Shown here: positions 47,191-49,070 of the stretch, piece by piece | How positions within the stretch are numbered: position 1 is the stretch's first letter | How the letters are laid out: every line of letters starts with the position of its first letter | Source of the DNA: an uncultured Pelagibacteraceae bacterium | GTDB taxonomy: Bacteria; Pseudomonadota; Alphaproteobacteria; Pelagibacterales; AG-422-B15 | DNA: 64,000 nucleotides | Direction: 5' to 3' | Assembly (NCBI GenBank): GCA_902577765.1 | Contig: CACHAK010000001.1 | Coordinates: 263,040-327,039 of the forward strand | Position numbers and translations under genes: made by a program | Notes under the pieces: generated by a model | What the model was told of the DNA's origin: nothing | Database searches by the model: none | Seen by the model: only the letters and a program-made list of their open reading frames with translations

Positions 47191-48123
47191 ATGAAAAATT
47201 TTATATCCTTACTTTTCATGATATTTTTTTTTGCAGCATCAACTGTTACAATTGCAAGTGATACAATAGAGCAAATTATTGAAAATAAAATCTCTTCTGG
47301 ATTAACAAATGTTGGCAATAAATTAGCTGAAATTATTCCTGGAGAGGGCGATACAGAAGTTACAATTTCAGAACAAGATAATTATGACATCAAATTTTCT
47401 ATCCTAGCAGTTCGTCCAATAGCAAAGAATCCATATAAGGGATTAAATAATGAACATTTATACTTTACACAACTACGTTTAAGTAGCCATGAACCCTTTG
47501 CAAACGGAGATGAAAGAACCTTATTGAATGCAGGTATTGGATTTAGAACTCTAGTAAATAATAACAATGCTATATTAGGTGCAAACTTATTTCATGATTA
47601 TGAATTTGATGAGGGTCATCAAAGAGGAAGTATCGGATTAGAATATCTTGCAAATAATTTTCAATTGTATGCAAACTTGTATGAAAGATTGTCAGATAAT
47701 GTGAATTATATGGTGGGATCTCAAACGGCTGTTGAAGAGGTAGTCAACGGCTATGATTTTTCAATTGTTGGACAGATACCATATATGCCTTGGGGAAAAC
47801 TAGTATATAAAGGCTACAATTGGGATAAAACAGGAAGTGATCTTGAGGGCCGAAGATTTTCTTTAGAAGCAAATCTATTGAGAGGAATGATATTTGAGTA
47901 CGGAAGAAATGACATAGATGATAGTTCTGATGAAGATTTTTATCAAATGACATTCAGATGGCCATCAAATCATTTAACTCCAACAGTCTTCTCACATACT
48001 ATTACGCAGTATGCTTTCCCAACAAAGAATATGAAAGCAGAAATGCTCCATAAAGTTAGACGAACAAATAATATAATTACCGAAAAAAGAAGTGGTGGGC
48101 TTGTAATAGGAAGAGGTAGCTAG
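47191..48123 (+). CDS. Inverse-autotransporter (intimin/invasin-type) beta-barrel without passenger
   Basis: Signal peptide; NAGIGFR, LGANLFHD, HQRGSIGLEY, VRRTNNII; ATG at 47191. Confidence 0.8.
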   Translation: MKNFISLLFMIFFFAASTVTIASDTIEQIIENKISSGLTNVGNKLAEIIPGEGDTEVTISEQDNYDIKFSILAVRPIAKNPYKGLNNEHLYFTQLRLSSHEPFANGDERTLLNAGIGFRTLVNNNNAILGANLFHDYEFDEGHQRGSIGLEYLANNFQLYANLYERLSDNVNYMVGSQTAVEEVVNGYDFSIVGQIPYMPWGKLVYKGYNWDKTGSDLEGRRFSLEANLLRGMIFEYGRNDIDDSSDEDFYQMTFRWPSNHLTPTVFSHTITQYAFPTKNMKAEMLHKVRRTNNIITEKRSGGLVIGRGS

Positions 48124-48128
48124 TATTG

Positions 48129-49070
48129 ATGAAAATGTTATTTAAAATAGTTTTGATTTTATATTGGGTAACTCTGCCAGTATTTGCTCAGGTCATATTT
48201 GAGAACCAGCAAAGTGGCACTCCAACTGTATTTAAAGTAAAACCAACTGACATGAAATTATGTGAAGATTTTGATTTAACTACTGGCGAGTGTTCAGGCG
48301 ATAATGTCTTTACTTTTTTAAAAACAATGACAGCAGACAATGGAAGATGCGACATTGCTGGAGTTACCGAAAACTCAATTGCTTGTAATTACGGACCGAC
48401 TAGCAATATTCCACTAAACGTAACCTATAGTTATTCAAGAATAACTCTTGATAGGACCATGTGGTTAAAGGGGACTGTGAATAATGTTACAAAACAGTTT
48501 ACCTCTTCAGATAGTTGTCACACGAACTCTGCTAATACTCAAGCAGATGGATCTATTGCGTCAGAGGGATCTTTAACTGGATCTCCAACTACTCAGGCAA
48601 TTAAATTTACAAATGGGCCTGGTAACGAGGATTTTTTAGGGAATGGAAGCAAGTCCTCAGCAAATACAATAGATACCTATGGAAACACTTGTTATAACGA
48701 TAGCTCAAATCAAGGCTGTGCTTGGGGCAGTGTAACTACATTAGATACTTATGGTTCCACTGTTTTTGATGGAACAAACCCTTATCCAGCATCTGATTAT
48801 AGCTTTACTGCTAATTATACTACACCCCCCGGCGGTGTTTGGCAAAGTGGTCTTTCAACAAATGACGACACGTTGGTCATAATCTATAAGTTAACTACTC
48901 CTTTTACGAGAACAAATTCAGATATTGCGCCACTTATAACAATGTCATTTGATGTAACGGATGCTTTAGATGCACAATTTATATATGCTAATGAAGCTGG
49001 TAGTGATCCAATAGAGGCTTGCTCAATTTATATTGGTAATCCAGGTGTAAGTATTACGATATCTGAATAA
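48129..49070 (+). CDS. Secreted Thr/Ser/Asn-rich hypothetical protein with 8 Cys
   Basis: Signal peptide ending VFA; beta-rich composition; 5 nt after the barrel gene. Confidence 0.8.
   Translation: MKMLFKIVLILYWVTLPVFAQVIFENQQSGTPTVFKVKPTDMKLCEDFDLTTGECSGDNVFTFLKTMTADNGRCDIAGVTENSIACNYGPTSNIPLNVTYSYSRITLDRTMWLKGTVNNVTKQFTSSDSCHTNSANTQADGSIASEGSLTGSPTTQAIKFTNGPGNEDFLGNGSKSSANTIDTYGNTCYNDSSNQGCAWGSVTTLDTYGSTVFDGTNPYPASDYSFTANYTTPPGGVWQSGLSTNDDTLVIIYKLTTPFTRTNSDIAPLITMSFDVTDALDAQFIYANEAGSDPIEACSIYIGNPGVSITISE

Follow-up and report, generated by a model that had tools for sequence, protein, structure and literature searches.

The DNA analysed here, hereafter the window, is a stretch of 64,000 nucleotides from an uncultured Pelagibacteraceae bacterium (assembly GCA_902577765.1, contig CACHAK010000001.1, positions 263,040 to 327,039). 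The genome is AT-rich and 1.27 Mb in size, and its relatives are labelled Pelagibacteraceae or Pelagibacterales, i.e., SAR11. The window contains two co-oriented genes which are the subject of this study: the first encodes an inverse-autotransporter (type Ve) beta-barrel devoid of passenger, hereafter the barrel, and the second a distinct protein with its own signal sequence, hereafter the partner (Table 1). An original prediction had proposed that a passenger-less barrel is located at this position next to a separately exported, Cys-rich protein of 313 aa. The open reading frames (ORFs), the PF11924 match of the barrel, and the signal sequence and eight Cys residues of the partner bear out this proposal.

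Table 1. Features of the barrel and partner genes (positions in the window; aa numbering of the protein concerned)
Feature	Position	Strand	Description or basis
Barrel-only inverse autotransporter gene	47191..48123	+	310 aa; ATG 47191, TAG 48121-48123
Barrel signal peptide, ~aa 1-22	47191..47256	+	Hydrophobic N-terminus MKNFISLLFMIFFFAASTVTIA followed by SD; putative cleavage site between the two
Predicted periplasmic alpha-helix, aa 23-48	47257..47334	+	AF2 DSSP H23-48
Predicted 12-stranded transmembrane beta-barrel, aa 55-257	47353..47961	+	AF2 DSSP strands; Foldseek intimin/invasin match
Predicted segment of the lumen, with linker, a short alpha-turn at aa 281-284 and, at aa 285-296, the pore-crossing motif MLHKVRRTNNII	47962..48078	+	AF2 DSSP
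Predicted C-terminal mini-hairpin TEKRSGGLVIGRGS, aa 297-310	48079..48120	+	AF2 strands 297-301, 304-307
AGAGG Shine-Dalgarno-like motif for the partner	48112..48116	+	Within the barrel's last Arg-Gly codons, 12 nt 5' of ATG 48129
Partner gene	48129..49070	+	313 aa; ATG 48129, TAA 49068-49070
Variable, indel-rich partner middle, aa 121-240	48489..48848	+	Column entropy, insertion positions

The barrel and the partner protein

The barrel ORF matches a single Pfam family, IAT_beta (PF11924), with an E value of 1.3e-31 and a score of 110.6 bits against a cut-off of 22.3. The match spans positions 25-279 of the 279 positions of the profile and ends at barrel residue 293, and no LysM domain was found by the same Pfam search. 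NCBIfam returned partial and weak matches to intimin, SinH and YchO models, all of them far under their cut-offs. The N-terminus has the features of a Sec signal peptide, with an Ala-x-Ala-like cleavage site as judged by eye, and residues 2-16 of this region appear as a low-confidence helix in the AlphaFold2 (AF2) model. This model, which was built on an alignment of 115 sequences (pLDDT 84.7, pTM 0.80), was used for a Foldseek search which retrieved the beta-domains of invasin (4e1t, with an E value of 1e-13 and a TMt of 0.81) and intimin (4e1s, with 1.6e-12 and 0.82, respectively), other 12- to 16-stranded barrels scoring far behind.

Intimin has an alpha-helical turn and a conserved Arg/Asn-rich linker which crosses the lumen, and its exit strand pairs with loops 4 and 5 (PMC13078405). 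The motif MLHKVRRTNNII of the barrel corresponds to this lumen linker and the strand which follows it to the exit strand; loop 4 contains an extra hairpin (aa 171-184, AF2 DSSP). It is also in MLHKVRRTNNII that the lowest column entropy of the barrel family is reached (0.28 bits). Within this motif, VRRTNNII occupies residues 289-296 and is followed by 14 residues before the protein ends at position 310. The original prediction had counted about 12 residues and, although this number requires correction, the passenger-less end that it described is confirmed. The mini-hairpin formed by these last residues occupies the site where a passenger would start, and the end of the barrel coincides with the position where the intimin domain D00 would begin. 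No passenger, be it Big/Ig repeats, a lectin or another domain, was encountered on the barrel polypeptide or on those of the 114 aligned homologues. On the basis of its predicted structure, the barrel thus appears to be a complete intimin-type translocation unit without passenger.

The partner begins with a hydrophobic signal sequence, MKMLFKIVLILYWVTLPVFA followed by QV (aa 1-20, Sec signal peptide). It contains eight Cys residues, at positions 45, 55, 74, 86, 130, 188, 197 and 298, and S, T, N and G account for 39% of the sequence. Searches in Pfam and NCBIfam and a profile search against PDB sequences returned no match for this protein, and ten diverse partners were likewise without significant Pfam match. 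In the AF2 model (pLDDT 84.6, pTM 0.80), the partner is all-beta, and Foldseek retrieved nothing significant for it in the PDB (best E 0.24, TM ~0.1) or in BFVD. TbpB/LbpB, a fimbrial adhesin and PsbO were the weak top rows of this search; they were not significant and were not used. As no significant fold match was obtained, the partner, in contrast to ZirS and ZirU, its counterparts in the Salmonella system discussed below, does not consist of an Ig, Big or fibronectin domain. The model rather depicts it as a disulfide-rich, all-beta protein of unmatched fold.

Partners sort into six sequence classes (A-F) which form two superfamilies. Profile comparison with hhalign relates classes A and B at 99.4% probability and classes C to F at 94-99.7%, and the probability between the two superfamilies does not exceed 16%. 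The partner of the window belongs to class A and that of a second cassette present in the same genome to class C. Homology of these two proteins was considered and discarded: BLASTP gave an E value of 0.2 which, together with the low profile probability, means that a common origin of the two superfamilies is not supported. The partner of the window has 16 homologues in 90% clusters, and a search of 1.84 billion proteins with the class A profile yielded no more than 170 representative clusters, with lengths of 220-376 aa in nearly every case. Conservation peaks in two regions, namely the part of the N-terminal third located behind the signal peptide (TPTVFKVKP..C..G.C..GRCDIA) and the C-terminal strands (..MSFDVT.. 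and NPGVSITISE). Column entropy is 1.0-1.3 bits in the N-terminal third versus 1.4-2.0 bits in the variable middle, and insertion hot spots follow residues 118, 168, 191, 218 and 231. In the shorter class B partners, most of the variable middle (~aa 165-238) is missing.

Gene junction and distribution of the pair

The barrel stop and the partner start codon are separated by 5 nt, and the partner is read in a different frame. The AGAGG motif located upstream of the partner (Table 1) recurs before the junction in most of 13 related loci, where the two genes overlap (TAATG or ATGA) or are separated by 1-7 nt. Because this motif is encoded in the last Arg-Gly codons of the barrel and recurs at the junctions, the conservation of the C-terminal 'RG' of the barrel may partly reflect a translational constraint. 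Judging from these features, the barrel and the partner form one translationally coupled cassette.

The unusual architecture of the barrel could in principle arise from a broken classical inverse autotransporter, in which the stop at 48121-48123 would reflect either faulty sequencing or a nonsense mutation of recent date that severed the passenger, but nothing beyond this architecture favors such an explanation. A database search returned 155 barrel homologues, among which the 114 aligned full-length ones have 299-320 aa, and the end position is shared by more than 110 homologues. In a survey of 201 genomes of the order, PF11924 was found in 79 genomes, with about 109 matches; all are located in open frames of at most 513 aa and all but one in frames of at most 361 aa, whereas most PF11924 proteins of other Alphaproteobacteria have 500 to >12,000 aa. 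The partner lies in another frame, is equipped with a start codon, a Shine-Dalgarno motif and a signal peptide of its own, and has no Big/Ig similarity, and the dN/dS ratio is about 0.1 in both genes. On these grounds, a broken gene is scarcely credible and this explanation was rejected. An erroneous stop, in particular, is very unlikely since both the position of the stop and the coupled start are conserved.

In each of 30 loci drawn from the order, as well as in the two cassettes of the genome under study, a barrel gene is followed by a partner gene. In these loci, the barrel ORF has 270-320 aa and the partner ORF 232-377 aa, with a junction of -14 to +14 nt; the partner always has a signal peptide, 4, 6, 8 or 10 Cys residues and an S/T/N/G content of 32-43%. 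The same layout was seen in 13 further Pelagibacteraceae loci and in two loci from metagenomes or metagenome-assembled genomes (MAGs), often with TAATG or ATGA overlaps. In total, 43 loci of relatives were inspected in the order, one of which is disrupted, and all have the barrel-then-partner layout. Beyond the order, barrel-only genes accompanied by such partners are present in five genomes from other alphaproteobacterial families (L034, L035, L038, L039 and L078). The pair is conserved and is a real two-gene envelope module. The original prediction had stated that an absence of linkage in other genomes would speak against a split, two-partner system; since the two genes are linked in every locus examined, this objection fails and the split arrangement is genuine.

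Several loci depart from the simple layout or extend it. In a single-cell genome (L068:4160-6189), both frames of the cassette are interrupted, leaving fragments of 56 and 116 aa, and the flanking genes are intact; this cassette is either a pseudogene or the product of assembly errors. In L075, the barrel and the partner are in the same frame and are split by a TAA stop. In another class of the phylum (L077:2447-3271, G755:C81, minus strand), an IAT_beta-like ORF of 274 aa ends within the linker motif (..AVRRDVD) and is followed, 51 nt further on, by a cytoplasmic-looking protein of 391 aa without signal peptide, so that no exported partner is present.

The second cassette of the genome under study (L002:1345-3096, G000:C1:178476-180227) consists of a barrel of 295 aa and a class C partner of 286 aa separated by 3 nt. 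It directly follows a proteorhodopsin-like gene (L002:399-1091) and precedes a convergent NAD-kinase-like gene, and it is divergent from the cassette of the window. At this same site, three relatives have a class D partner. In a complete genome of the order (L081:3239-14217, G049:C1, minus strand), barrels and partners form an island: two class-F-like partner paralogues are followed by a barrel and two more class-F-like partners, then by two other ORFs with signal peptide and, at the end, by another barrel, which is accompanied by a class E partner. Several partners can therefore follow one barrel, as in zirT-zirS-zirU.

Allelic variation and co-inheritance

Variation within populations was assessed on seven loci sharing the order ABC-HlyD-barrel-partner-kinase-nucleotidyltransferase-orf116-aprA. 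This sample is small and its genomes are related, so that the identity and dS patterns reported here are indications rather than tests. Median pairwise identity falls from 99% in aprA to 91-93% in the three small genes nearby, 79% in HlyD (with two allele types), 76% in the barrel and 40% in the partner. Partners come in discrete types, members of one type being 91-94% identical and members of different types 34-47%. Comparisons made inside a partner type gave dN/dS ratios of 0.09-0.14 (partner) and 0.08-0.15 (barrel), so that both genes are constrained by purifying selection. In two pairs of the same type, the dS of the cassette (0.24-0.49) is below that of most flanking genes (~0.5-1.2), which suggests that the cassette has recently been exchanged; the adjacent kinase gene has a dS about as low (0.35-0.48). 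Such hypervariability is the pattern expected for a protein exposed at the surface under pressure from phages or grazers, and both exposure and this selective agent would be consistent with it.

Barrel identity tracks partner identity (Spearman 0.59) but HlyD identity does not (-0.11). Comparison of HlyD from the window (45930-47144) with L062-L069 distinguished two allele types, 63-65% identical between types and 94-98% within, which are shuffled relative to the barrel and partner types and therefore indicate that a recombination breakpoint lies between HlyD and the barrel. The window and L062 illustrate this situation, their HlyD proteins being 98% identical and their partners only 47%.

These data bear on a possible role of the pair in the adjacent type I secretion system (T1SS), for example as the outer-membrane anchor of its cargo of 3058 aa. 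The order ABC-HlyD-barrel-partner is kept in eight related loci, and HlyD is separated from the barrel by only 46 nt without predicted terminator, which would be consistent with such a role. However, class A pairs also occur in T1SS-free contexts (L070-L073, L075 and L076), the second cassette of the genome is located beside proteorhodopsin, and the alleles of HlyD are shuffled with respect to those of the cassette. A contribution of the pair to the T1SS is thus highly improbable, and an obligate functional tie is ruled out by the T1SS-free contexts and the allele shuffling. The same observations qualify the description of the pair, in the original prediction, as a second surface module directly after the T1SS: the local synteny holds, but the association does not extend to T1SS-free contexts and is interrupted by recombination breakpoints between HlyD and the barrel.

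A maximum-likelihood tree was calculated for 35 barrels, including members from outside SAR11. Its deepest split (support 99/98) separates all barrels with class A or B partners from all those with class C to F partners, non-SAR11 barrels included. The C-terminal tails of the barrels also co-vary with the class of the partner, reading ..GGxxxxRG[ST] for class A and ..E[IV]QGxVxxT.. for class B, and ending in ..GF for classes C to F. This co-variation, as read from the sequences, fits a functional coupling between the two proteins.

It may also be considered that both genes simply share an operon, the barrel functioning on its own as a small protein of the outer membrane and the partner acting independently of it, in the periplasm or as an otherwise secreted protein. 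The interaction of barrel and partner is putative, adjacent genes are co-inherited without any need for their products to interact, and the L077 barrel, from another class, has no exported partner downstream. The pairing is, however, without exception across more than 40 loci, with overlapping stop and start codons, and it spans two deep barrel clades, several partner classes and genomic contexts, and other alphaproteobacterial families. Moreover, among the SAR11 loci examined, neither gene was encountered without the other, except for additional partner paralogues located beside a barrel. Mere operon sharing is therefore regarded as unlikely.

Known systems, mechanism and significance

To our knowledge, nearly all understanding of type Ve secretion comes from enteric pathogens, whose adhesins carry their passenger in cis, and ZirT/ZirS is the only split type Ve system that has been studied, with an Ig domain common to both proteins.

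In Salmonella enterica, ZirS is a protein of 276 aa with a Sec signal whose secretion depends on Sec and on ZirT, a protein of 660 aa (Gal-Mor et al., 2008, PMC2270342). In their main text, Heinz et al. (2016, PMC4943183) generalised this system as "two-partner inverse autotransporters", with SinH/SinI and Yfr4/Rat-like pairs, and reported a monophyletic group of inverse autotransporters whose C-terminal extension is very short, proposed as a possible ancestral state. The assertion of the original prediction that type Ve passengers are established as being carried in cis is contradicted by both studies, from which a split layout is already conceptually known.

The SAR11 cassette resembles ZirT/ZirS in that a PF11924-type barrel gene is followed by at least one co-oriented gene for a Sec-exported protein of ~280-380 aa. 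In the window, as expected for a two-partner system, the protein encoded downstream of the 5-nt gap is itself devoid of barrel, and some SAR11 loci contain one barrel with two partner paralogues, recalling ZirT/ZirS(/ZirU). The differences are nevertheless substantial. ZirT has a C-terminal Ig-superfamily (IgSF) extension homologous to ZirS and ZirU, whereas the SAR11 barrel has no extension, and its partner has neither Ig, Big or fibronectin similarity nor any fold match, so that the pair has no shared IgSF domain. In addition, the SAR11 partner is hypervariable with discrete allele types and its host is a free-living marine oligotroph, not an enteric pathogen. Barrel-dependent export, which has been shown for ZirS (PMC2270342), would by analogy apply to the SAR11 partner.

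With classical type Ve proteins (intimin, invasin and FdeC), the barrel has in common the signal peptide, the predicted 12-stranded barrel, the alpha-turn, the Arg/Asn-rich linker and the exit strand. It differs from them by the lack of a passenger in cis and of LysM, and its 310 aa contrast with the ~500 to >12,000 aa of long inverse autotransporters in other Alphaproteobacteria. As in the short-extension group of Heinz et al. (2016, PMC4943183), almost nothing follows the barrel domain; the main text of that study describes no dedicated non-Ig partner, no SAR11 members and no hypervariability.

Type Vb systems (FhaC/FHA, TpsB/TpsA) are also comparable insofar as a separate outer-membrane transporter and a Sec-exported cargo are encoded side by side. 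In these systems, the transporter TpsB is an Omp85 barrel of 16 strands equipped with POTRA domains, and the cargo TpsA contains a TPS domain. In contrast, Omp85/POTRA and TPS domains are absent from the SAR11 pair, in which Pfam identifies IAT_beta only in the barrel and nothing in the partner.

Within SAR11, the barrel and partner arrays found in complete genomes of the order recall the hypervariable region HVR1 of Ca. Pelagibacter ubique HTCC1062, where SAR11_0042 to SAR11_0046 alternate between "autotransporter" and "unknown" genes and undergo gain and loss between strains (Wilhelm et al., 2007, PMC2217521). By analogy, islands such as that of L081 may correspond to these HVR1 genes, although Wilhelm et al. 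(2007) treat them as autotransporters and not as barrel-only, two-gene units.

On balance, it is considered probable, by a moderate preference, that the cassette is a stripped-down two-partner type Ve system, in which the display of the partner at the cell surface, or its release, would depend on the barrel. We infer that the barrel and the partner interact, that the partner crosses the outer membrane and is exposed at the surface, and that phages or grazers are the selective agent. Following this mechanism, both proteins would reach the periplasm through Sec, and the barrel would be inserted by the BAM machinery, its linker and exit hairpin taking up, as they do in intimin, the lumen and the extracellular face. 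The partner would be oxidized by DsbA-like proteins, with formation of its putative disulfides, and would then reach the surface or be released in a manner dependent on the barrel. This last step could proceed through the barrel or a BAM-barrel hybrid pore, along the lines suggested for ZirT/ZirS, or else by docking of the partner onto the exit hairpin and the loop 4-5 sheet. The partner itself would combine a beta core that is conserved with a variable middle rich in loops, its old and discrete allelic types recombining within conserved flanks. DsbA-like thioredoxin-fold genes, the candidate oxidants, are present in the genome. In the own 90.5%-complete assembly, no match was found for Omp85/BamA (PF01103) or TamB (PF04357); as BamA was found in 16 of 21 relatives, its absence is probably an assembly gap.

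Several observations weigh against this proposal. A 12-stranded barrel has a narrow lumen, through which it would be difficult to pass a partner containing up to four disulfides if this protein folds in the periplasm; the contact of the partner with the barrel and its crossing of the outer membrane are, moreover, putative. Unlike ZirT and ZirS, the barrel and the partner share no Ig-like domain. In the barrel, loops 4-6 and the tail have a somewhat higher column entropy, but periplasmic turns 1, 3 and 5 vary too, and variability is not clearly concentrated in the extracellular loops. As for co-variation, linked inheritance of adjacent genes can alone produce it, and the conservation of the barrel tail may partly result only from the embedded Shine-Dalgarno motif. 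Finally, the barrel of the second cassette, which has a class C partner, nests among class D barrels, so that the match between barrel and partner at the level of classes is not strict.

The difficulty of threading a folded protein gives some weight to a different arrangement, in which barrel and partner would form a stable envelope complex and the partner would remain periplasmic, as an accessory, plug or ligand-binding subunit of a small channel, its variability reflecting something other than surface exposure. The several conserved disulfides and the compact predicted fold of the partner, awkward for a 12-stranded barrel, would be readily accommodated, and the long predicted periplasmic helix of the barrel (aa 23-48) could bind it. 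Yet discrete and ancient allele types amid neighbours which are 91-99% identical are typical of exposed surface proteins rather than of periplasmic ones, and the barrel retains the whole outward linker and exit hairpin of type Ve, the linker being its most conserved part. Furthermore, ZirS, the only relative studied experimentally, is exported from the cell. A periplasmic complex is thus held to be doubtful, and export or display of the partner remains preferred.

A more specific proposal, put forward tentatively and as no more than possible, is that the cassette represents a distinct and ancient minimal display system, in which a barrel-only type Ve translocator would dock or export a new cargo of non-Ig fold whose alleles would be maintained as old, discrete types through negative frequency-dependent selection by pelagiphages or grazers.

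SAR11 are the most abundant bacteria of the ocean and have very few outer-membrane and surface proteins. A passenger-less barrel always paired with an unrelated, disulfide-rich cargo offers a test of whether an inverse-autotransporter barrel, or a BAM-barrel hybrid, can act in trans and of what recognises the cargo, and a barrel of 310 aa with a separate cargo is a possible compact scaffold for surface display. A hypervariable surface protein which recombines and of which each genome has one to several copies is also a plausible phage receptor or decoy and a plausible marker of population structure. If the cassette is indeed a display system, it would provide a natural test case for the handling of cargo in trans by a 12-stranded type V barrel and would be a main protein determinant of cell-surface diversity in SAR11.

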